From a virus (taxonomy: Duplodnaviria; Caudoviricetes), in IMG/VR virus record IMGVR_UViG_3300020021_000008, positions 1 to 63,215 of that record: 63,215 bases of DNA; one strand, 5' to 3'. The notes under the pieces were generated by a model. The model was not told the DNA's origin. It made no database searches and saw nothing but the letters and a program-made list of their open reading frames with translations. Positions 27,531 through 48,666 of this stretch are shown piece by piece (positions within the stretch are counted from its first letter, which is position 1; every line of letters begins with the position of its first letter). Made by a program: the position numbers and the translations under genes.

Positions 27531-27958
27531 TGACCGAGATCCACCTAGTCGCCACCCTCGTTGGAATGCACTTCCGCCCACCAGCCAAGGCCGTGCTCGC
27601 GCACCTCCCCGCCGAAGCCCAAGTCGATCTAATCCCGGAGCCGGACAATCCCTACGACGAGTTCGCGGTCAAGGTGTTAGTCGATCCCGATGCAGTCCCT
27701 GAGGACGAGTACGAGGCGCTGAGAGAGGATCTCGCCGCAAGCGGCTTCGACCTAGAGGAGCTACTCGGTGGCCCCTTCCTCCAGCTTGGTTACGTCGGCT
27801 CCAAACCAGGCAAAGCCGGACCAGTCTTTGGTGTCACCTACGCCCCGGAGTTGCAACCTCAGCTGCTCTCCGCCGAGGACTACAAAGCCACTCTCGGGTT
27901 CGACGTAAGCGGCGATCCTCTAGTCCACATTACAATTATCACCGAGGAGGCAACCTGA
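27530..27958 (+). CDS. HIRAN-domain protein
   Basis: LVGMHFR..VDLIPEPDNPYDEFAVKV..LGYV; TGATG overlaps at both ends. Confidence 0.75.
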   Translation: MTEIHLVATLVGMHFRPPAKAVLAHLPAEAQVDLIPEPDNPYDEFAVKVLVDPDAVPEDEYEALREDLAASGFDLEELLGGPFLQLGYVGSKPGKAGPVFGVTYAPELQPQLLSAEDYKATLGFDVSGDPLVHITIITEEAT

Positions 27959-28824
27959 TGCCTACCAATCCCAACGACCTCAGACCTGATCTGGATCCAG
28001 TCGCGAGGCTGACTCGCGACATTCGCAACGCGGCAAGGACTCTCTCCACCGCCGAGGCGAGGTTCCTCGTCGATAGTTACTACCAAATGCAGCGGGATCG
28101 CATCCGTGCTGCTCACCAAGAGCGAACCCTCTCCGAAGGTGCCGAGCCCCACGACACCATGATGTGGCTGATGGGCCAGCGAGTCACCCTGGAGCAGCAG
28201 GTCGCCAGGGCACTGGACGCCTACAGCGCCAGCCATCCAGTAGGCGACTGGGCACGGAGCATATGCGGCATCGGCCCAGTGATCGCCGCCGGTCTCCTTG
28301 CTCACATCGATATCACCAAAGCCCCCAGCGTCGGTCATATCTGGCGCTTCGCCGGGCTGGACCCAACCGTGAAGTGGACCAAGGGCAACAAGCGCCCTTG
28401 GAACGGCGCGCTCAAGAGGCTCTGCTGGCTCATCGGCGAGTCGTTCGTCAAAGTGTCCAGCAATGAGAACGACATTTACGGCCAGATCTACAAGGCCCGC
28501 AAGGAACTCGAGATCCAGCGCAACGAGGCCGGTCGGTTCGCTGACCAGGCCAAAGCCGCGCTCGCCGAGAAGAAGTTCGGTGCCGACACCGAAGCTCGGA
28601 AGTGGTACGAGCTGGGAAAGTTACCGCCGGCAAGGATCCACCTGAGGTCCGAGCGTTACGCAGTTAAATTGTTCCTATCCCACCTCCACCACGTGATGTA
28701 CGAGAACCACTTTCACAAACCTCCTGAGAAACCCTACATCTTCAACGAGGGAGCAGCTATCGCCACGGGGACCGGACCGCATACCCATTACCTCGCCCCA
28801 CCGAACTGGCCCCGGAGCACCTAG
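27958..28824 (+). CDS. tasA: IS110-related Nop-domain RNA-guided DNA-binding protein (TasA-like, no nuclease domain)
   Basis: Coiled-coil N-terminus, GIGPVIAAGLLAHID..IWRFAGLDP..WNGALKRLCWLIGESFVK..YKARK..RYAVKLFLSHL; no DEDD RuvC and no IS110 SG motif; adjacent dual-spacer array. Confidence 0.8.
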   Translation: MPTNPNDLRPDLDPVARLTRDIRNAARTLSTAEARFLVDSYYQMQRDRIRAAHQERTLSEGAEPHDTMMWLMGQRVTLEQQVARALDAYSASHPVGDWARSICGIGPVIAAGLLAHIDITKAPSVGHIWRFAGLDPTVKWTKGNKRPWNGALKRLCWLIGESFVKVSSNENDIYGQIYKARKELEIQRNEAGRFADQAKAALAEKKFGADTEARKWYELGKLPPARIHLRSERYAVKLFLSHLHHVMYENHFHKPPEKPYIFNEGAAIATGTGPHTHYLAPPNWPRST

Positions 28825-36387: not shown

Positions 36388-36725
36388 ACTACTACGACGA
36401 GGGACGACCGCGAGTCAGCTACCGCCCAGCCTACGTCGACAGTGTTGGTCGGCCAATTGCCCCACTTCCCAGCCTGTCGGTGTTACCGCTGCTGAATGGC
36501 GGCTACCGTATTGGAGTATGGGTGCGTACTGATTTCCACTCTGCGCGAGAGCTACACTACAAAGCCGACAGCCCCGATGACCTGTTGCAAATACTCACGA
36601 GCTTTATGAACGACCCAGAAGCTACACTGTTCAATGTGTTCGGCTACGAGGGCATGCTCCGCAACGACCCACCAGCAGGTGCGCCAGTAAAACCCACCTT
36701 ACGACTGAGCGATATCGGACTGTAG
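36384..36725 (+). CDS. Hypothetical protein ending LSDIGL
   Basis: GAGGAGG RBS, ATG 36384. Confidence 0.65.
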   Translation: MNYYDEGRPRVSYRPAYVDSVGRPIAPLPSLSVLPLLNGGYRIGVWVRTDFHSARELHYKADSPDDLLQILTSFMNDPEATLFNVFGYEGMLRNDPPAGAPVKPTLRLSDIGL

Positions 36726-36747
36726 GCGCGATCGGACTGTAGGCGCG
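36714..36747. repeat. 17-bp tandem duplication
   Basis: ATCGGACTGTAGGCGCG twice, spanning the stop codon. Confidence 0.85.
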
Positions 36748-36942
36748 GTACTCCAGTAAGGTGGTATCCACTTAGGTTTGTGGGTCAATTCATTCCTTGA
36801 ATGTGTGCCGGGCACTTTTCCCTTGCGCTCGGTCCCCATTGTGTGTCAACATACCCATACAATAAATTGATTGCCTAACTGCTTTCCCCGCCGTACCTTG
36901 CGCCCGAGGCAATCCGTCTCTATTCAGCCCAAAGGACCAATC

Positions 36943-37548
36943 ATGGCTAAGCCTGCCACCAAGCCCACCACCAATGGCGACAACTCCGCTGACTCTGGCA
37001 CCCAGACAATCCTCATCCAGGGCCTGCAGTTTTCTGCCCCCGCTCCGTACAACGAGGGCCACGTGCTCTCTGAGGCCGAGGCCAACGTGCTGAACCAGAC
37101 CTTCGGCGAGAACCTCCGCAACAACTTCGCCTCGGTGGTCAAGGCGGCTCGGACCGCACTCAATCTCCCTGACAAGACCGACCTCACCGATCCGACGGTA
37201 CTGGGGGAACTGACTGCCAAGTTCGCCGAATACGCCTCCAGCTATACGTTCTCCGGCCGACGGGCGCCGAGGATCGTGGCTGACCCTGTGGAGCGTGAGG
37301 CGATCCGCATTGCCAAGTCCATCGTCACGGAGCACCTGGCTGCTCACAAGGTCCTGGTCAAGAACCTCCCCGAGGGCCGGATGGACTCCCTAGTGTCGGA
37401 ACTCCTCTCGAAGCGCCCTGACATTCGCGTCGAGGCGAAGCGTCGGATCGATGTGACCAAGGACGCTGCGACGGAGGTGCTGGACGATCTGATCGCCAAG
37501 GCCACCGCCCCGGCGACACCGGCTGAGGCTGAGCAGCCCCAGGCCTAA
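36943..37548 (+). CDS. Hypothetical helical protein
   Basis: AAGGA RBS; APYNEGHVLSEAEANVLNQTFGENLRNNF. Confidence 0.8.
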   Translation: MAKPATKPTTNGDNSADSGTQTILIQGLQFSAPAPYNEGHVLSEAEANVLNQTFGENLRNNFASVVKAARTALNLPDKTDLTDPTVLGELTAKFAEYASSYTFSGRRAPRIVADPVEREAIRIAKSIVTEHLAAHKVLVKNLPEGRMDSLVSELLSKRPDIRVEAKRRIDVTKDAATEVLDDLIAKATAPATPAEAEQPQA

Positions 37549-37552
37549 CACT

Positions 37553-37628
37553 CTGCGGGGATGGTGATACGGCTCGGGTACTTCATCCAACGAAGCGTCC
37601 CCGATCCAGACTTTGTTCCTCTCTGCAG
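37553..37628 (+). ncRNA. Y-RNA-like unit 1
   Basis: Closing stem CTGCGGGGA/TCTCTGCAG; TGGTG..GGGTACTTC..TGTTCC motifs. Confidence 0.65.
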
Positions 37629-37636
37629 TTCCCATT

Positions 37637-37704
37637 GGGAGGTGGTGTTACGCAACGGGTACTTCTTTGGTGAAGCGTTCCCGTAGCACGGTTGTTCCCC
37701 TCCC
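37637..37704 (+). ncRNA. Y-RNA-like unit 2
   Basis: GGGAGG/CCTCCC stem; same motifs. Confidence 0.65.
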
Positions 37705-37718
37705 GCTTTCGCAACCCC

Positions 37719-37785
37719 TGGCGAGTGGTGTTCGGCACGGTTACTTCAGCGGTGATGGTACCGTACCAGCAGTGTTCCCTCGCCA
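37719..37785 (+). ncRNA. Y-RNA-like unit 3
   Basis: TGGCGAG/CTCGCCA stem; same motifs. Confidence 0.65.
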
Positions 37786-37793
37786 CCTCACCT

Positions 37794-37874
37794 GTTGGGT
37801 GGTGTTTGCCGCAGTTACTTCGATCCTCGCCATACTTGAGGCTTTACGTACTGTGGCTGCCGTATTCCCCCAAC
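37794..37874 (+). ncRNA. Y-RNA-like unit 4
   Basis: GTTGGG/CCCAAC stem; TGGTG..AGTTACTTC..TATTCC. Confidence 0.6.
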
Positions 37875-37887
37875 GCCTCTTCCCTGG

Positions 37888-38012
37888 GTGGATGGTGTAG
37901 TTATCGGTTACTTCAACTTTGGGTCGAGGGTTCAAATCCCTCCAGGTGGTGACACCTGTAGCTCAGTTGGTAGAGCAAAAGTCCTCGTGCCGTAACACTG
38001 CTGTTCCTCCAC
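37888..38012 (+). ncRNA. yrlA: YrlA-type Y RNA (tRNA mimic), unit 5
   Basis: T arm GAGGG-TTCAAAT-CCCTC precedes capped acceptor CAGGTG-GTGA-CACCTG and D arm TAGCTCAGTTGGTAGAGC; next to the Ro60 gene. Confidence 0.8.
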
Positions 38013-38014
38013 TG

Positions 38015-38040
38015 GAGGGCCGAAAGGCCCTCCCCTTTTT
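38015..38040 (+). terminator. Intrinsic terminator within the Y-RNA cluster
   Basis: GAGGGCC-GAAA-GGCCCTC followed by CCCTTTTT. Confidence 0.7.
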
Positions 38041-38060
38041 GCCCACAGTCACAACCTAGC

Positions 38061-38202
38061 GTTGCGTGGCGTATGGGTCGGTTACTTCGGTTAGAGCGCC
38101 GACGTCCGCTTGTGTCGGAGGTTGTGGGTTCGAGTCCCACTGAGGGTGGCAGTGATGCTGCGCTTATAGCTCAATCCCAACTGTCCCTCCTGTTCCCGCA
38201 AC
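38061..38202 (+). ncRNA. Y-RNA-like unit 6 with a tRNA-like domain permuted at the D loop
   Basis: GTTGCG/CGCAAC stem; GGTTAGAGC, CCGAC/GTCGG arm, T arm GTGGG-TTCGAGT-CCCAC, hairpin, then TAGCTCAAT. Confidence 0.7.
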
Positions 38203-38222
38203 TCGGAGCCCCGGAGCCCATC

Positions 38223-39533
38223 ATGGAACTCAACCGCACAGTCGGTCCCGTCACTTTCGAGGGAGCCCCCGCAGCGCCCACCACTCCCGAGCAGGCTCTC
38301 CGCCGCTCGGTAATGTCGTGCCTGTTGTGGGAGCGTGAGTTCTACGAGGATGGAACAGCAATTGCGGACCGCATAGAGATACTCTGTGCCAAGGTTCCCC
38401 ACAGCGTCATCGCGGCACTCGCCATCGAGGCCAGGCATAAAATGCACCTGCGGCACGTGCCGCTCCTGCTGTTGGCAACGCTTGCCAAGCTGGCCCCGGG
38501 GTCATCTCTGGTGTCCGACACCATCGAAACCACCGTGGCGAGAGCGGACGAGCTTACCGAACTCCTTGCCATCTACTGGCGCCGTGGCAAGTGCCCGCTG
38601 AGTGCCCAACTCAAGAAGGGCCTCGCCAAGGCATTCCGCAAGTTCAACTCCTACCAGCTGGCCAAGTACAACCGCCCGAAGCCAATTCGCTTGCGGGATG
38701 TGATGTTCCTCGTCCACGCCAAGCCGGACGCCGAGAGCGAGTCCACCTATCGGGACCTCGCAAACAAGACTCTTGCCTCGCCCGACACCTGGGAGGTCGC
38801 TCTGAGTGCCGGTGCGGACAAGTGCGAAACGTTCACTCGGCTCATCAAGGCCGGAGAGCTGGGGTATTTGGCGCTCCTCCGTAACCTCCGCAACATGGCC
38901 GAGGCGGGAGTGGACACAGAGCTAGTCCGCAACGCCATTGTCGCAGGGAAGGGGGCGCATCAGGTCCTCCCTTTCCGCTACGTTGCGGCGCTGAGAGCCG
39001 CCCCTCAGTTCGCGAACGAACTCGACTACGCCTTACAGCAGTCCATCGCGAAGCTGCCCCTGCTACTCGGAACCACTCTGGTGGTGGTGGATGTGTCGGG
39101 CTCGATGAACGATACGCTGTCCCAGCGTTCGGACCTCACTCGCATGGACGCCGCTGCGGCCCTCGCCGCACTCATCAACGGGAGTCGCCTCAGGGTATTT
39201 ACCTTCTCCGACAAGGTGGTCGAGTGTGCTCCGTGGCGCGGCCTCGCTGGGATCTCCGAGATCCTTGGCTCCCAGCACCACTCGGGCACGTACCTCGGCC
39301 AGGCCCTTGCCACCATCCTCGCCGCAACAGAGAACCAGTGGGACCGCCTGATTGTCATCACTGACGAGCAGTCCCATGATCGTGTGAGGCACCCTGGCCG
39401 GGGCCGCTGTTACATGATCAACGTCGCCAGTGCGAAGCACGGCGTCGGCTACGGCGAGTGGCTTCACATCGACGGCTTCAGCGAAAATGTGATCCGCTAC
39501 ATCGCCGAGTTCGAAGCAGCTTTGGCCCGGTAA
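38223..39533 (+). CDS. rsr: Ro60/Rsr TROVE-domain RNA-binding protein with vWA domain
   Basis: TFEGAPA, SCLLWEREFYEDG, RHVPL, RADEL, YQLAKY, TWEVALS, ALLRNLRN, PFRY, VDVSGSM, IVITDEQ; start 38223 (GGAG RBS). Confidence 0.92.
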   Translation: MELNRTVGPVTFEGAPAAPTTPEQALRRSVMSCLLWEREFYEDGTAIADRIEILCAKVPHSVIAALAIEARHKMHLRHVPLLLLATLAKLAPGSSLVSDTIETTVARADELTELLAIYWRRGKCPLSAQLKKGLAKAFRKFNSYQLAKYNRPKPIRLRDVMFLVHAKPDAESESTYRDLANKTLASPDTWEVALSAGADKCETFTRLIKAGELGYLALLRNLRNMAEAGVDTELVRNAIVAGKGAHQVLPFRYVAALRAAPQFANELDYALQQSIAKLPLLLGTTLVVVDVSGSMNDTLSQRSDLTRMDAAAALAALINGSRLRVFTFSDKVVECAPWRGLAGISEILGSQHHSGTYLGQALATILAATENQWDRLIVITDEQSHDRVRHPGRGRCYMINVASAKHGVGYGEWLHIDGFSENVIRYIAEFEAALAR

Positions 39534-39540
39534 ATCCTCC

Positions 39541-39777
39541 ATGGAAGAGTACGAAATCCTAGCGCTGCTTTACGATGCTCTGGCCTCGAAGCTGGGGATT
39601 GCAGTCCGAGTGTCACACTTTTCTACAGCGAGTCAGATGCTCGGCAACGCCAGGAAGAAGTGTGGCGATCCGGCCCTACAGTCGCTCCAGTTTCGAGCTA
39701 GCCCATACGCCGAGGACGAGTTGTGGATTGTCCGGGCCGGCGCGGTAAAGCTGCCGCCAGGGGAAGACGACAAGTGA
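39541..39777 (+). CDS. Hypothetical protein
   Basis: Operon spacing. Confidence 0.65.
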   Translation: MEEYEILALLYDALASKLGIAVRVSHFSTASQMLGNARKKCGDPALQSLQFRASPYAEDELWIVRAGAVKLPPGEDDK

Positions 39778-39962
39778 CCTTGTACTGGATGAAAGTTCTC
39801 GAGGTTGGAGGAAGCGCGATAGTAATTGCGTTGGGCACGTGGATGTGTTTTCTGCTGATAGAGTGGATGGTGAACGGCCCAACTGTGAAAAATTTACTGC
39901 TGATCGGTGTGCTGGCAATTGCAGTTATTTTAGGCACCGCAGCACTAGCACTGTTGCCGTAA
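39774..39962 (+). CDS. Small membrane protein
   Basis: GTGA overlap; two hydrophobic helices. Confidence 0.5.
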   Translation: MTLYWMKVLEVGGSAIVIALGTWMCFLLIEWMVNGPTVKNLLLIGVLAIAVILGTAALALLP

Positions 39963-43932: not shown

Positions 43933-45324
43933 ATGCCCATCACCGACGACTTCCAAGTAATCCACACTGCCTCCATTATCATCAATCGTGACGAGCGCCA
44001 GCGCAGCAAAATCGACACAGGGTCGCTTCGCGACAGCATCCGGCGCAACGGCCTCATCAGCCCGGTCGTAGTGACCAGGGATCTGGTGCTGGTGGCCGGT
44101 GAGCGCCGCCTTACGGCGTGTCGAGAACTCGGTCACGAGACCATTGCAGTGAGGTTCGTGGAGGATCTCTCGCCCCTGGAACTCATGATCATTGAGCTAG
44201 AGGAGAACCTCAAACGGAGTGATTTGCCGTGGCAGGACGAAGTGAAGGCCGTGGCGAAACTTCACGAGTTGTACTGCACCATCACCCCTGGATGGTCGCA
44301 GGTTCAATCCGCCGAGGCCCTCTCCATCGCCGGCTCGTACTTGAGTTCCATTCTACGCGTAGCACGAGAACTCGATGACCCCCGTATCTCGACGGCTACT
44401 GGGGTGATGCCCGCGTACAACGTCCTCGCACGCATTGATGAGCGCAGGATCGGCGATGCAGTAGGCGCCATCATGGATGCCGGGGAGGAGATATTTGCGC
44501 CGCCATCAATCCCGGCGCCACCGCTCAAGCCCGGCGAGAAAGCCCCACCTAAGGCCACCGTGATCGCCGCTCCGGCAGAGTCAATTCTCCAAACATCCTT
44601 TTTCTCCTGGGCACCCCAGTACACCGGACCCAGGTTCAACTTCATCCACTGCGACTTCCCCTACGGAATGAACGTGTTCGGTGGGGCTATGAGCGGCCGT
44701 GACAAGTGGGCCACCACAGCCCAAGGGAAGGCACCGTATAGTGATAGCAAAGAGGACTACTGGAACCTCATCGCGTGTCTCTGCGATAACCTCGACCGAA
44801 TAATGAGCCCGCAAGGGCATCTGATGTTCTGGTTCTCCATGGAGCACTACGTGGCGACTCTCGAGGCTTTCCGCAAGCAAGCACCATCACTGATATTCAG
44901 CCCTTTCCCCCTAGTGTGGGTAAAGAGCGACAACGTGGGGATCCTCCCCGACTCCAACCGTGGTCCCCGGCGAGTGTACGAGACCGCCCTAGTCGCCTCG
45001 CGAGAGGACCGCTTCATCGTCAAACCTGTTGGCAACGCCATCTTCGCTCCCACCAACAAGGACCACCATCCCAGCACCAAGCCCGAGCCCGTGCTCAAGC
45101 ATTTCTTCCAGATGTTCGTGGACGAGAACACCACCCTGTTCGACCCAACGTGTGGGAGTGCCAGTGCTCTACGCGCGGCGGAGTGCCTCGGAGCGAAACG
45201 AGTCCTTGGCCTCGAGTCCGACATCGAACACCACGCAAATGCGTGCTCAGCGCTCAAGCTCTTTCGCACTCTCCGCGCTGCGGCGAACCTGCTGGCGAAG
45301 CCCGAACCCCTGCCGGCACCATGA
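43933..45324 (+). CDS. ParB-N domain fused to an N4/N6 DNA methyltransferase-like domain
   Basis: LVAGERRLTA..ELEENLKR; CDFPYG (DPPY variant), HPSTKP, FDPTCGSAS. Confidence 0.8.
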   Translation: MPITDDFQVIHTASIIINRDERQRSKIDTGSLRDSIRRNGLISPVVVTRDLVLVAGERRLTACRELGHETIAVRFVEDLSPLELMIIELEENLKRSDLPWQDEVKAVAKLHELYCTITPGWSQVQSAEALSIAGSYLSSILRVARELDDPRISTATGVMPAYNVLARIDERRIGDAVGAIMDAGEEIFAPPSIPAPPLKPGEKAPPKATVIAAPAESILQTSFFSWAPQYTGPRFNFIHCDFPYGMNVFGGAMSGRDKWATTAQGKAPYSDSKEDYWNLIACLCDNLDRIMSPQGHLMFWFSMEHYVATLEAFRKQAPSLIFSPFPLVWVKSDNVGILPDSNRGPRRVYETALVASREDRFIVKPVGNAIFAPTNKDHHPSTKPEPVLKHFFQMFVDENTTLFDPTCGSASALRAAECLGAKRVLGLESDIEHHANACSALKLFRTLRAAANLLAKPEPLPAP

Positions 45325-46385
45325 GCGGGCTTGCGCCGCCGTTCGCTCACACCAGTGGGCCAAGGGACGCCTCCGTGGTGCTGGTCGGTGAGGCATGGGG
45401 AGAACAGGAAGAACTAACCGGCTATCCATTTGTAGGTGCATCGGGCCAGGAGTTGTCGCGGATACTACTCGACGCTGGCCTTAAGCGCCAGGACCTCCTG
45501 CTGACGAATGTCCTCGCCAAGCGCCCTCCCAACAATAACATCGATCTCCTCTGCGGTCCCAAGAAAGACGCCGGGTTCAACTATGCACTTGCTCCGCTCC
45601 GACAAGGCAAATACCTCATGCCCGAGCATCTCCCAGAACTCGACCGTCTGGGCGAGGAGTTGGCGTTTGCTCCGCGCACTCTTGTTGTGGCTCTTGGGGC
45701 TACTGCTTGCTGGGCTCTGTTGGGCCGTGGTGCTATTGGGAGTTTACGTGGTGTCGTGGCTCGGGGAGTGGGTCCTGGGGAACACCTAAAAGTGCTCCCG
45801 ACCTACCATCCAGCAGCAGTGTTGCGCAACTGGTCCCTCCGCGTAGTGGTGTTGCAGGATCTGCTCAAAGCCAAGCGGGAGGCGCTGTTCCCCGAGATTC
45901 GCCGTCCGCATCGCGAGGTGTTAGTCGATCCGACACTCCCGGAGATAGCGGAGTGGTATCAGGAGGCTTCCCGTGCTGAGTTGCTCGCTGTTGACATTGA
46001 GACTATGCACAAAACAATCTCCTGCGTGGGCTTTGCACGCAGCGCCAATCGGGCTATCTGCATCCCTTTTGCTGATGATCGATTTCTGGCTCGAAGTTAC
46101 TGGCCTACTGTCGCTGATGAGGTAGCGGCGTGGGAGTGGGTGAGGGCGCTACTGCAACTTCCGGTCCCCAAGGTGTTCCAAAACGGAGTGTATGACATTT
46201 CGTACCTCTGGCGGATGGGCCTCCCCGTCCGCAACAGCCTCCACGATACCATGCTTCTTCACCACTCGATGTTTCCGGAATTGCAGAAGAGTCTCGGGTT
46301 TATGGGCAGCATTTATACCTCGGAGAGTTCATGGAAATTAATGCGGCAGAGGAAGAAGGAAGAAGATTTGAAGAGGGAGGAGTGA
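45321..46385 (+). CDS. Uracil-DNA glycosylase (family 4-like) fused to the N-terminal part of a PolA 3'-5' exonuclease
   Basis: LVGEAWG..PFVGASG..TNV..PTYHPAAVLR; then AVDIET (ExoI), QNGVYD (ExoII), HDTMLL. Confidence 0.85.
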   Translation: MSGLAPPFAHTSGPRDASVVLVGEAWGEQEELTGYPFVGASGQELSRILLDAGLKRQDLLLTNVLAKRPPNNNIDLLCGPKKDAGFNYALAPLRQGKYLMPEHLPELDRLGEELAFAPRTLVVALGATACWALLGRGAIGSLRGVVARGVGPGEHLKVLPTYHPAAVLRNWSLRVVVLQDLLKAKREALFPEIRRPHREVLVDPTLPEIAEWYQEASRAELLAVDIETMHKTISCVGFARSANRAICIPFADDRFLARSYWPTVADEVAAWEWVRALLQLPVPKVFQNGVYDISYLWRMGLPVRNSLHDTMLLHHSMFPELQKSLGFMGSIYTSESSWKLMRQRKKEEDLKREE

Positions 46386-46793: not shown

Positions 46794-47135
46794 ATGCTGT
46801 GCGTCTTCATTTGCTCTCCCTACCGTGCCGCCAATTCCGGCACCCATCTCCGCAACACCGACTACGCCCGCCAGGCCATGTTCGACAGCTTTGCCCGAGC
46901 TGAGGCCCCATTCGTACCGCACATCCTCTACCCCCAGATCCTGAACGACGACGACGAGGTGGACCACAATCTCGCGATCGCTGCGGCTAACGCCTGGATG
47001 GAAATGGCCGACACTCTCGCGGTGTATGAGGATCTGGGGATTAGCGCTGGAATGGCGGCGGAGATTAAACTGGCGCAGGAGTTGGACATTCACGTAGAGT
47101 ACCGCTCAATTGCCACAGAAGGAACTGCAGCATGA
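46794..47135 (+). CDS. Nucleoside 2-deoxyribosyltransferase-like/DUF4406-type small protein
   Basis: FICSPY..APFVPH.LYPQ..AVYEDLGISAGMAAEI. Confidence 0.65.
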   Translation: MLCVFICSPYRAANSGTHLRNTDYARQAMFDSFARAEAPFVPHILYPQILNDDDEVDHNLAIAAANAWMEMADTLAVYEDLGISAGMAAEIKLAQELDIHVEYRSIATEGTAA

Positions 47136-47154: not shown

Positions 47155-48666
47155 GTGCCAGTCATCCGCACCGACGAACTCGTCGAGGGCCAGCGCACCC
47201 CACAGCAGGAGCAGATTTACAATGGTCTGGACTGCTGTGTGACGTTCGAGGTACATGAGGCGCTCCAAACGCTCTTCAACGTGGAGCCTGAGGTCTATGG
47301 GTTTGAGCGGGCGCTCCAGGGACCAGCGCTCGAAATGTCGATGAGAGGGTTTAGGATTGATGAAACCGAGAGGCGAATTGGTGCAGCGGCGCTAAGGCGC
47401 AAGCTCGTCAGGTTAGACAACGTGTTGCAGCAACTCGCGTTCGCCGTGTGGGGAAAGGGCCTTAACCCCAGGTCACCCAAACAGCTGATCGACTTCTTCT
47501 ACGGCACGATGCACCTGCCGGAACAATGGTCCAGCAAGAAGGGCGTGAGGCGGCTCTCCACCGATAGGGAGACCCTGGAGAAGCTCCAGATCTACTTCCA
47601 CGCCCTCCCCATCATCACCACCATTTTGGCAGTTCGTGATTATGCAAAGCAATTGGAGGTACTGGAGACCGAGATCGACCCGGACGGCCGGTTTCGTACA
47701 AGCTTTAATATCGCAGGAACTGAGACATGGCGGTTCAGCAGCTCAGGTAGTGTCACTGGAACGGGGAGAAATATCCAAAACATTGCTCCCGAATTACGCA
47801 AAATGTTCGTGGCGGACCCCGGCTACATTCTGGTCGGTATCGATCTGGAGCAGGCGGAGAGTCGAGAGGTGGGTTGGCTCTGCGGCACCATTCTGGGCGA
47901 TTGGACCTATCTCGATGCGTGTTACAGTGGAGACCTGCACGTTACCACAGCAAAGCTTATCTGGAGAGATCTCGGTTGGACTGGAGATCCGAAGCGCGAC
48001 CGAGCTTTGGCTGACGTCAAATTCTATCGTGAGTTCTCATATCGGGACCTGGCCAAGCGAGGGGGACACGGTAGTAACTATATGGGTACGCCGTGGACTA
48101 TGGCGAGGCATCTCAAAGTGGTGCTTCGTCTTATGGAAGATTTCCAAAGGGCGTATTTCACTGCGTACCCGGCCATTCCCAAATGGCACAGGTGGGTTGC
48201 TACGCAAATCCAAACCACGCACCAGCTCACTACTCCGTGGGAGGTGACGAGGACGTTTTTCGGCAGGCCGAGCGACGACACCACGCTCCGCGAAGCGATA
48301 GCATTCAGCCCACAGAGTTCTACTGCGATGCGGATGAACCTCGGCATGTGGAGGGTCTGGAATGAAATGGGATCGGACGTTCAACTTCTCGCTCAAGTCC
48401 ACGACGCCATTTACTTCCAGGTCCCCATCACCAGCGACATTCCAGCGATTTGTTCTCGTGCCCTCAGTCTCATCGATATCCGTCACAGTCACGGTGGACG
48501 TGAGTTGGTCGTGCCGGGAGAATGCAAGGTTGGATTCAACTGGGCCGCGCACCACGTCCACGACGAGAAGTGTCAGCCCGGTTGCACTCTAACTGTCAAC
48601 CCTAATGGACTGCGGAAGGGCACCGCCCTTCGACCCAGACTGGAGGGCCTCGACCGCGTGTTCTAA
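47155..48666 (+). CDS. polA: Family A DNA polymerase (ExoIII plus polymerase domain)
   Basis: YNGLD, TETWRFSS, DLEQAESR (motif A), RDLAKRGGHGSNY (motif B), QVHDAI (motif C). Confidence 0.92.
   Translation: MPVIRTDELVEGQRTPQQEQIYNGLDCCVTFEVHEALQTLFNVEPEVYGFERALQGPALEMSMRGFRIDETERRIGAAALRRKLVRLDNVLQQLAFAVWGKGLNPRSPKQLIDFFYGTMHLPEQWSSKKGVRRLSTDRETLEKLQIYFHALPIITTILAVRDYAKQLEVLETEIDPDGRFRTSFNIAGTETWRFSSSGSVTGTGRNIQNIAPELRKMFVADPGYILVGIDLEQAESREVGWLCGTILGDWTYLDACYSGDLHVTTAKLIWRDLGWTGDPKRDRALADVKFYREFSYRDLAKRGGHGSNYMGTPWTMARHLKVVLRLMEDFQRAYFTAYPAIPKWHRWVATQIQTTHQLTTPWEVTRTFFGRPSDDTTLREAIAFSPQSSTAMRMNLGMWRVWNEMGSDVQLLAQVHDAIYFQVPITSDIPAICSRALSLIDIRHSHGGRELVVPGECKVGFNWAAHHVHDEKCQPGCTLTVNPNGLRKGTALRPRLEGLDRVF

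Follow-up and report, generated by a model that had tools for sequence, protein, structure and literature searches.

Positions 37553 to 39533 of a soil tailed-phage genome carry six tandem Y-RNA-like units followed directly by a gene for a protein with TROVE and vWA domains. The genome is IMG/VR virus record IMGVR_UViG_3300020021_000008 (Duplodnaviria; Caudoviricetes), and the whole record, 63,215 bp long and complete by the CheckV estimate (100%), is referred to here as the window. From sequence evidence the region can be identified with good confidence as a Ro60/Y-RNA system. It probably represents a phage Ro60/Y-RNA ribonucleoprotein (RNP) system in which one TROVE-vWA protein is accompanied by six Y-RNA-like RNAs. 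Y-RNA anatomy, compensatory covariation, linkage to TROVE genes and homology of the protein were all found, and this reading is preferred because of the covariation, the TROVE linkage, a partial match of unit 5 to the YrlA model and the homology of the protein to Ro60 of Thermus phage phiLo. Conservation of Ro60 and Y RNAs extends from bacteria to humans.

Layout of the array

The array lies on the + strand between the stop codon (37548) of a 225-aa open reading frame (ORF) of no assigned function and the TROVE-vWA gene. Unit 1 begins 4 nt past this stop codon and unit 6 ends 20 nt before the TROVE start; the spacers across the array are, in order, 4, 8, 14, 8, 13, 48 and 20 nt. All six units are thus found 20–670 nt upstream of the TROVE gene and on its strand, inside the range used by Chen 2014 to assign Y RNAs (≤4 kb, same strand).

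Unit 1 (37553–37628) is a minimal Y-RNA-like hairpin with a 9-bp closing stem, UGGUG, GGUACUUC, a short apical hairpin and UGUUCC. Units 2 (37637–37704) and 3 (37719–37785) are likewise minimal hairpins, and unit 4 (37794–37874), also minimal, has a longer apical hairpin and the 3' motif UAUUCC. Unit 5 (37888–38012) is a YrlA-type Y RNA. Directly 3' of it, an intrinsic-terminator-like hairpin (8 bp, 7 of them G–C) followed by a T run occupies 38014–38041. Unit 6 (38061–38202), recognized by its motifs and a 6-bp closing stem, combines a Y stem with a circularly permuted tRNA-like cloverleaf joined via the D-loop. The gene for the Ro60-like protein (436 aa) follows at 38223–39533. All of these features are on the + strand.

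Pairwise identity among the six units is 38–74%, with a mean column identity of 43%, and they are therefore regarded as old paralogues rather than fresh duplicates. A preliminary description of this DNA had proposed six units, each with its own closing stem, shared motifs and a variable distal part, directly upstream of a TROVE-vWA gene. The folds, a motif check and a covariance model (R1, below) bear out the units at the coordinates given above, and Pfam matches bear out the gene, the start of which was refined to 38223.

A conserved stem module with variable heads

Each unit folds with its own closing stem of 5–9 bp. The motifs TGG(T/C)G, G(G/T)TACTTC and T(G/A)TTCC are present in every unit, in that order. 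In an alignment of 79 units from the window's relatives and the two phage isolates described below, UACUUC is near-invariant and unpaired (75–79 of 78–79 units at each position). Further near-invariant, unpaired positions are the U before GG, the G of UGGYG and the A two positions later, and, on the 3' side, a G and UU. The closing stem and the inner helix vary and covary. Between them is a conserved asymmetric internal loop with U-GG-Y-G-W-A on its 5' side and G...YUURUU-CC on its 3' side, and UACUUC comes after the inner helix. The Y of UGGYG and the R of UURUUCC (alignment columns 10 and 160) combine as U.G in 38, C.A in 17, C-G in 13 and U-A in 4 of 78 units, which suggests a wobble-type pair inside the loop. 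Folds, covariation and column conservation together thus give the general features of a Y RNA, namely 5' and 3' ends that pair, a conserved internal loop and a variable second module. Minimal units of at most 85 nt account for 44 of the 79 and are similar to YrlB and Yrn2, which Chen 2014 characterizes as long hairpins that have a small loop.

GNCGAA was proposed by Chen 2014 as the contact for Rsr (PMC4201824), and the phiLo study showed that the motif contributes to binding (PMC12135203). At the aligned position of GNCGAA the present units have CGGKUACUUC. In the Rfam alignment of a unit from a Xanthomonas phage, CGGUUACU occupies the place of the YrlA motif.

In unit 5 the Y stem replaces the anticodon stem and leads into a T arm, then a closed acceptor-like hairpin, then a D arm containing GG. 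This is the YrlA architecture given in a structural preprint (10.1101/312249). The Rfam YrlA model aligns with unit 5 over model positions 23–85 of 114 (42.1 bits, E 8e-8), and the T and D loops are canonical. The tRNA-like module typical of YrlA was found in unit 5 only; units 1–4 are without it.

Unit 6 scores 19.8 bits against the same model (E 0.23) and has its arms in a different connectivity. GAGC near the 5' side of the unit pairs with GCUC near its 3' side to form a D stem, which continues into the Y stem. Within this D stem lie an anticodon-like hairpin of irregular form, a T arm that is canonical and an acceptor-like hairpin with a cap. Re-permuted in a script, with the D-loop re-joined and the cap opened, unit 6 was recognized by ARAGORN (default settings) as a tRNA whose anticodon loop has 8 nt. 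In a control, 0 of 200 shuffles of the re-permuted sequence were called. The TROVE-proximal unit of one relative (L006:2860–2976) is wired like unit 6. The D-loop-joined topology was considered as a common class and rejected; among all loci examined, the pattern was seen only in the window, L006 and perhaps L045. The reading in the preliminary description, a phage Ro60 gene with a tandem cassette of six Y-RNA-like genes, four of them minimal, agrees with the covariation, the TROVE linkage, the partial YrlA match of unit 5 and the phiLo homology; the other two units carry tRNA-like modules.

As it stands in the window, the array gives no standard tRNA call: ARAGORN found 0 tRNAs and 0 tmRNAs over the whole window. 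The only match to RF00005 reaches 25.3 bits (cut-off 29); it extends over units 5 and 6 and includes an insert of 122 nt. In relatives, some tRNA-like units have an extra anticodon-arm-like hairpin with the 7-nt loop CUGYUAA, which places GUU or GCU in the anticodon position. Carriers are L001:2787–2922, L007:2426–2558, L020:2799–2930, L021:2783–2915 and L034:2453–2586; the window units are without this hairpin.

Covariance models and covariation

Two covariance models were built from units found in the DNA around 29 viral relatives of the protein and two phage isolates (31 loci). R1 was made from an alignment of 25 minimal units, four from the window and 21 from 17 other loci. R2 was made from 21 units of other viral contigs and holds no window sequence. 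Searching both strands of the whole 63,215-base window with R1 gave exactly six matches, all on the + strand, at 37556–37625, 37637–37704, 37720–37784, 37794–37874, 37887–38013 and 38062–38201. Units 1–4 are in the seed of R1 and match by construction (51.2, 59.4, 58.3 and 50.7 bits), and units 5 and 6 are outside it. Unit 5 scored 33.7 bits (E=2.3e-7) and unit 6 20.9 bits (E=1.2e-3). R2 recovered units 1–5 (E 2e-10 to 7e-6) and nothing else in the genome at E≤1. Its scores were 35.9 bits for unit 1 (E 3e-8), 43.1 for unit 2 (E 2e-10), 36.2 for unit 3, 37.5 for unit 4 and 28 for unit 5 (E 7e-6).

Compensatory change was assessed on the 25 hand-picked minimal units. In this alignment, 92.6% of cells are paired, compared with 42–52% when the partners are slid by 1–3 columns. 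Over the two helices, 131 cells have changed on both sides, and 0 of 500 shuffles were as high. Helix 2 was unused in picking the units; its cells are 88% paired, and 8 of the 9 base pairs show compensatory change. The 79 Infernal-aligned units give the same picture. In addition, the same motifs recur beside the TROVE gene, and on its strand, in the loci of relatives.

The folding energies of units 1–6 give z values against shuffled sequences of -1.55, -2.45, -2.73, -3.32, -2.19 and -1.78. These beat the shuffles only modestly, so the support for the RNAs comes from motifs and covariation and not from energy. Megablast of the locus against phage records gave no match. A protein-coding reading of the array was rejected, as 0 of 7 overlapping ORFs match PHROGs. 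A conserved apical motif in the minimal units (UUC, U-rich, GG..GAA) was also dropped; the pattern fits 6 of 44 of them.

The Ro60-like protein

The protein matches the Pfam TROVE family (PF05731) at 47.4 bits against a cut-off of 23, with only residues 184–234 matched, and VWA_2 at 40 bits against a cut-off of 27. Translation likely begins at the ATG at 38223, and not at 38073, where the open frame has its first ATG and from which it would cross unit 6. The later start is preferred because it is preceded by GGAG and because homologues align from residues 1–11 of this form. The protein also matches phrog_850, "RNA-binding protein", at 7e-45.

Among solved structures, the sole direct match is Ro60 of Thermus phage phiLo (9KOP/9L5Y, E 3e-25). 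A profile of 24 relatives finds phiLo over its full length (5e-51) and RO60 (9NEN, 8e-12), with more distant matches to Xenopus Ro60 (1YVP, 6e-9) and Deinococcus radiodurans Rsr (2NVO, 8e-6). The MIDAS (metal-ion-dependent adhesion site) motif DVSGSM aligns with DVSGSM of phiLo, and ITDEQSHD with its ITDEQTHD. The MIDAS residues D290, S292, S294, T380 and D381 are invariant in the 24 relatives. The protein thus has the features of the Ro60/Rsr family, TROVE above the Pfam cut-off and a C-terminal vWA domain with a MIDAS. As judged from its sequence, it is a short, phage-type member of the Ro60 family, an assignment made because the profile also reaches RO60, Xenopus Ro60 and D. radiodurans Rsr. 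A ring-shaped HEAT-repeat fold is predicted by homology to the phiLo crystal structure. When the basic residues mutated in the phiLo paper (PMC12135203) are placed on the alignment by our own mapping of that paper's numbering, 5 of 7 are basic here.

Relatives of the protein are encoded in 67 genomes of phage records, all with less than 60% identity. They include Brevundimonas, Xanthomonas, Caulobacter, Rhizobium and crAss-like phages.

Linkage to TROVE genes and unit numbers in relatives

R1 was applied to the 31 loci chosen by their protein. It gave 79 matches in 30 of the 31, all on the TROVE strand, with 0 matches in 1 locus, 1 in 5, 2 in 11, 3 in 6, 4 in 6 and 5 in 2. The reverse approach started from the RNA. 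The viral collection was scanned with one 22-nt form of the motif, and 80 loci were taken. A TROVE homologue was found within 3.5 kb in 68 of these, on the same strand in 67. The motif is mostly 76–977 nt upstream of the TROVE gene and just downstream of it in 8; units downstream of the gene were seen in L009–L014 and L038. Among 80 cellular loci collected by motif, 42 have a TROVE gene, all on the same strand. Strand-specific linkage thus holds in 109 of 160 motif-first loci. By a rough estimate that assumes equal base frequencies, the 22-nt pattern would occur about 140 times by chance in 596 Gb, which would explain matches without TROVE in unrelated taxa.

R1 gave no match at the distant TROVE genes of crAss001, Rhizobium phage RHph_TM39, Ralstonia phage RsoM2USA and L008. 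The GGUUACUUC RNA type may therefore be limited to one TROVE subfamily, or the R1 model may be too narrow.

The preliminary description implied that an array of this kind was unique. This did not hold, as 2–8 units are the rule in relatives. The 80 motif-first viral loci have 192 R1 matches, with at most 5 per locus, and the 42 TROVE-bearing bacterial loci have 158, with up to 8 (L226) and 7 (L231) in Terracidiphilus assemblies. Caulobacter phage CcrColossus has 7 R1 matches and one YrlA match found by Rfam only, all within about 1.2 kb upstream of its TROVE gene, and Xanthomonas phage MET23-P3 has 5 units. Array lengths in relatives reach 1.2–1.75 kb. The closest relative, L005, encodes a protein 82% identical to that of the window and has three units, which match unit 1 or 3, unit 2 (90%, L005:2714–2781) and unit 5 (80%, L005:2807–2940). 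With only three matching units in L005, units appear to have been gained or lost recently. Altogether, over 400 units of the family were seen across some 150 loci of phages and bacteria.

Bacterial hosts of the family include many Acidobacteriota/Terriglobia as well as Caulobacter, Asticcacaulis, Hyphomicrobiaceae and Verrucomicrobiia. The neighbors of the chromosomal arrays (for example L226:3107–4855 and L231:3112–4689) are housekeeping genes and not phage genes. In one Asticcacaulis genome, the subfamily TROVE gene is followed by a gene for the RNA-repair methyltransferase Hen1 (L189:5362–6753; PF12623, 5e-111). Some Y-like units have been labeled as tRNA genes. The record of Brevundimonas phage Kikimora labels part of a unit (L002:2784–2858) tRNA-Ser, and that of CcrColossus labels part of a unit (L034:2128–2195) tRNA-Gln; each overlaps a YrlA or R1 match. 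A permuted tmRNA match (57.7 bits, gathering score 47) was also seen in Kikimora at L002:6359–6704, a few kb downstream of the TROVE locus.

Transcription of the array

A scan found no sigma-70-like promoter near the array or for unit 6 and the gene, and no convincing -35/-10 pair was seen when the 27 nt that separate the terminator from unit 6 were inspected. The spacers of 8–14 nt between units 1–5 leave no room for separate promoters. Terminator-like sites number 2 in 36700–39800, compared with a shuffle mean of 2.2, and this count is not significant; the placement of the 38014–38041 hairpin right after unit 5 is suggestive. Terminators are also annotated inside the CcrColossus array. Units 1–5 are probably made in one transcript that continues from the upstream genes and stops at the hairpin with its T run. 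Read-through, or a promoter of a type outside the scan's recognition, would then yield unit 6 and the Ro60 mRNA. According to Chen 2014, YrlA and YrlB of Mycobacterium smegmatis are processed from one precursor (PMC4201824). Host RNases may similarly trim the precursor here to the stems protected by the protein.

Comparison with known Ro60 systems

The phiLo system (PMC12135203; 9KOP, 9L5Y) is like that of the window in having a TROVE and vWA protein with DVSGSM and Y-like RNA genes directly upstream on the same strand. It differs in having two RNAs, Yrl1 and Yrl2, which were found via a CGAA motif, whereas the window has six with CGGKUACUUC replacing GNCGAA, two of them with tRNA-like modules. 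Binding was shown in vitro for phiLo, while the window is known from sequence alone. The phiLo Ro60 and its two RNAs are described as binding host polynucleotide phosphorylase (PNPase) in vitro and damping its activity (PMC12135203).

YrlA and YrlB of S. Typhimurium and M. smegmatis (RF02553; PMC4201824; 10.1101/312249) likewise adjoin the gene for a Ro60 orthologue on the same strand. Unit 5, with its Y stem in place of the anticodon stem, is YrlA-like, and units 1–4 resemble the simple long hairpins of YrlB. Production of several RNAs from one precursor would be another shared feature, proposed here for the window. In contrast, the window units score below the Rfam cut-off, have GNCGAA replaced and number six instead of two. 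The D-loop connectivity of unit 6 was not found in the available parts of the published YrlA/YrlB accounts (PMC4201824; 10.1101/312249).

CcrColossus (JX100810) encodes a TROVE protein 57.5% identical to that of the window and has the same RNA family in tandem upstream. It differs as a 280-kb jumbo phage with many true tRNAs. A single putative YrlA is listed for it in the supplement of Chen 2014. The D. radiodurans Rsr–Yrn1–PNPase complex (RYPER) serves as a model for a Y RNA that gates the Ro60 ring and tethers an exoribonuclease, the Y RNA linking Rsr to PNPase (PMC4201824). It differs from the present system in being cellular and stress-induced, and its Yrn1 comes from another Y-RNA lineage. 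In crAss001, transcription of the TROVE gene is among the earliest (PMC8375218).

Phage Ro60 genes with Y-like RNAs are already known. Chen 2014 reported them in 22 phages, and phiLo was added in 2025. The present locus differs in having GGUUACUUC instead of GNCGAA and in its multi-unit array. The arrangement of Ro60 with a Y-RNA array is common in related phages and soil bacteria and has been described only in part. In the available portions of the literature on YrlA, phage Ro60 and TROVE, no arrays of more than two units, no GGUUACUUC-type stem module, and neither minimal phage units nor a D-loop-joined mimic were found, although earlier mention is possible.

Proposed function and alternative explanations

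Together, the closing stem, the internal loop, the covarying helix and UACUUC most likely make up the Ro60-binding module. The variable distal part would be the effector module, comprising four short hairpins and two different tRNA mimics. The RNPs would form during infection, and the RNAs would gate the Ro60 ring or tether it to host factors of RNA metabolism. By the example of the D. radiodurans and phiLo complexes, the most likely partner would be a 3'–5' exoribonuclease, for instance PNPase; PNPase itself is offered as a tentative candidate, by analogy. Tethering to enzymes of RNA decay or tRNA handling would reshape RNA decay during infection, and different heads would give different partners. 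The suggestion in the preliminary description of one Ro60 scaffold with interchangeable adaptors fits this anatomy and is kept here as a proposal.

Several observations weigh against this reading. The literal motif GNCGAA(N0-1)G is present in 0 of the 6 window units. Rfam at gathering thresholds gave no match in the window, and no unit reached the YrlA (RF02553) gathering score of 69; the search with the YrlA model suggested in the preliminary description thus yielded the partial match of unit 5 (42.1 bits) and, for unit 6, 19.8 bits. A covariance model of the units had also been suggested as a check. R1, with units 1–4 in its seed, matched all six units, while R2 matched units 1–5 and missed unit 6 (9 bits, E 0.24, with filters off), the 87-nt insert of which is heavily penalized in this search. 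Unit 6 therefore depends on its motifs, 6-bp closing stem, inner helix, position and the weaker R1 match. Closing-stem complementarity was used in picking the seed, which makes the covariation of helix 1 partly circular. For unit 1, 16 of 200 shuffles have folds as good as its own, and for unit 6 the number is 12 of 200. PNPase as partner is carried over from two distant systems, and the 2018 structure preprint still calls the YrlA effector unknown (10.1101/312249). The reading further supposes that the units would be processed to discrete RNAs, would bind the protein, would engage a partner and would benefit the phage.

Two alternatives accept the same RNP and assign it another role. It could act as a decoy or sponge for host defense nucleases that target tRNA, or titrate host factors that bind tRNA. 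In favor of this, units 5 and 6 mimic tRNAs, tRNA-like units in relatives carry the anticodon-arm-like CUGYUAA loop, such units are annotated tRNA-Ser and tRNA-Gln in published phages, and the window encodes no true tRNA. Yet tRNA features are absent from four of the six units, unit 5 lacks an anticodon arm and the loop of unit 6 is irregular, with 8 nt. Moreover, what is invariant in every unit is the stem module, as opposed to the tRNA-like part, and the same arrays stand in bacterial chromosomes among housekeeping genes, where an anti-defense role is unexpected. A decoy is considered improbable, and the tRNA-decoy idea of the preliminary description found no specific support in the window. 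The RNP could instead be a platform for RNA repair that hands damaged RNAs to host RtcB or Pnkp–Hen1. Rsr, YrlA and YrlB adjoin RtcB in many bacteria (10.1101/312249; PMC4201824), a survey of jumbo phages groups phage TROVE proteins with RNA repair (PMC7824862), and Hen1 follows the subfamily TROVE gene in one Asticcacaulis locus. Against this, Hen1 was seen in 1 of 8 bacterial flanks examined, most of which have no repair genes. The phage itself has no RtcB by six-frame search, as the preliminary description had noted, and no RNA ligase, kinase or PNPase is among the PHROG matches of its 87 ORFs. A repair platform is accordingly given a low probability.

Two other alternatives question the RNAs themselves. 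The units could be cis-acting structures in a long Ro60 mRNA leader, such as autoregulatory sites or stabilizers, instead of free RNAs. This would suit the end of unit 6 only 20 nt before the start codon and the scan that found no sigma-70-like promoter near the array. It is made very improbable by the terminator-like hairpin between units 1–5 and the gene, by units downstream of the TROVE gene in L009–L014 and L038, by arrays that reach 1.2–1.75 kb and by the homologous YrlA and YrlB, which accumulate as processed RNAs bound by Rsr (PMC4201824). It is scarcely credible that the units are the decayed remains of a tRNA gene cluster, or a repeat, selfish or due to chance, that has nothing to do with the TROVE gene. 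T-arm and D-arm sequences are present in units 5 and 6, and genome-wide the enrichment of the octamer GKTACTTC by itself is only mild (8 found, 2.2 expected; 1 of 100 shuffles reaches 8). These explanations are opposed by the ARAGORN count of zero, by a sole Rfam tRNA match that is below cut-off and spans two units, and by the four units without tRNA features. They are also opposed by the strong compensatory covariation, by the same-strand TROVE linkage in 109 of 160 motif-first loci and by the overlapping ORFs, 0 of 7 with a PHROG match.

Other features of the phage genome

PHROG matches in the window include a portal protein, large terminase, helicase, exonuclease, DNA polymerase and endolysin. 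The polymerase (phrog_17) is spread over two ORFs, 44916–46385 and 47155–48666; of the two ORFs between them, one is a nucleoside 2-deoxyribosyltransferase-like gene (46794–47135). The ORF at 43933–45324 encodes a ParB-like nuclease domain at its N terminus and a DNA methyltransferase domain at its C terminus. In a different frame, it runs over the start of the first polymerase ORF, and gene borders are provisional here. A transposase-like ORF (phrog_4285, 3.5e-50) is at 27958–28824, within the phage genome.

Implications

The units belong to a large, coherent Y-RNA family that is barely grazed by the curated YrlA model and has a different motif on its protein side. More than half of the members in the first set are minimal hairpins, which homology searches for tRNA-like YrlA would miss. 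A practical point is that phage records at present label some of the units tRNA genes.

Arrays of up to eight units per Ro60 gene suggest selection on the number and variety of RNA partners. Cultured, tractable phages carry the family (CcrColossus with 7–8 units and MET23-P3 with 5), and the purpose of multiple Y RNAs is therefore directly testable. A further proposal, rather unlikely as it stands, is a modular adaptor library, in which one docking stem (UGGYG, UACUUC, UURUUCC) would be combined with interchangeable heads. The heads would be bare hairpins, YrlA-type mimics, D-loop-joined mimics and the CUGYUAA-loop mimics of relatives. Phages would have taken this kit from soil bacteria and would enlarge or reduce it, between 1 and 8 units, for counter-defense or for rewiring RNA decay. 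If this were true, a single Ro60 ring would be aimed at several tRNA-recognizing host enzymes or defense nucleases at once.

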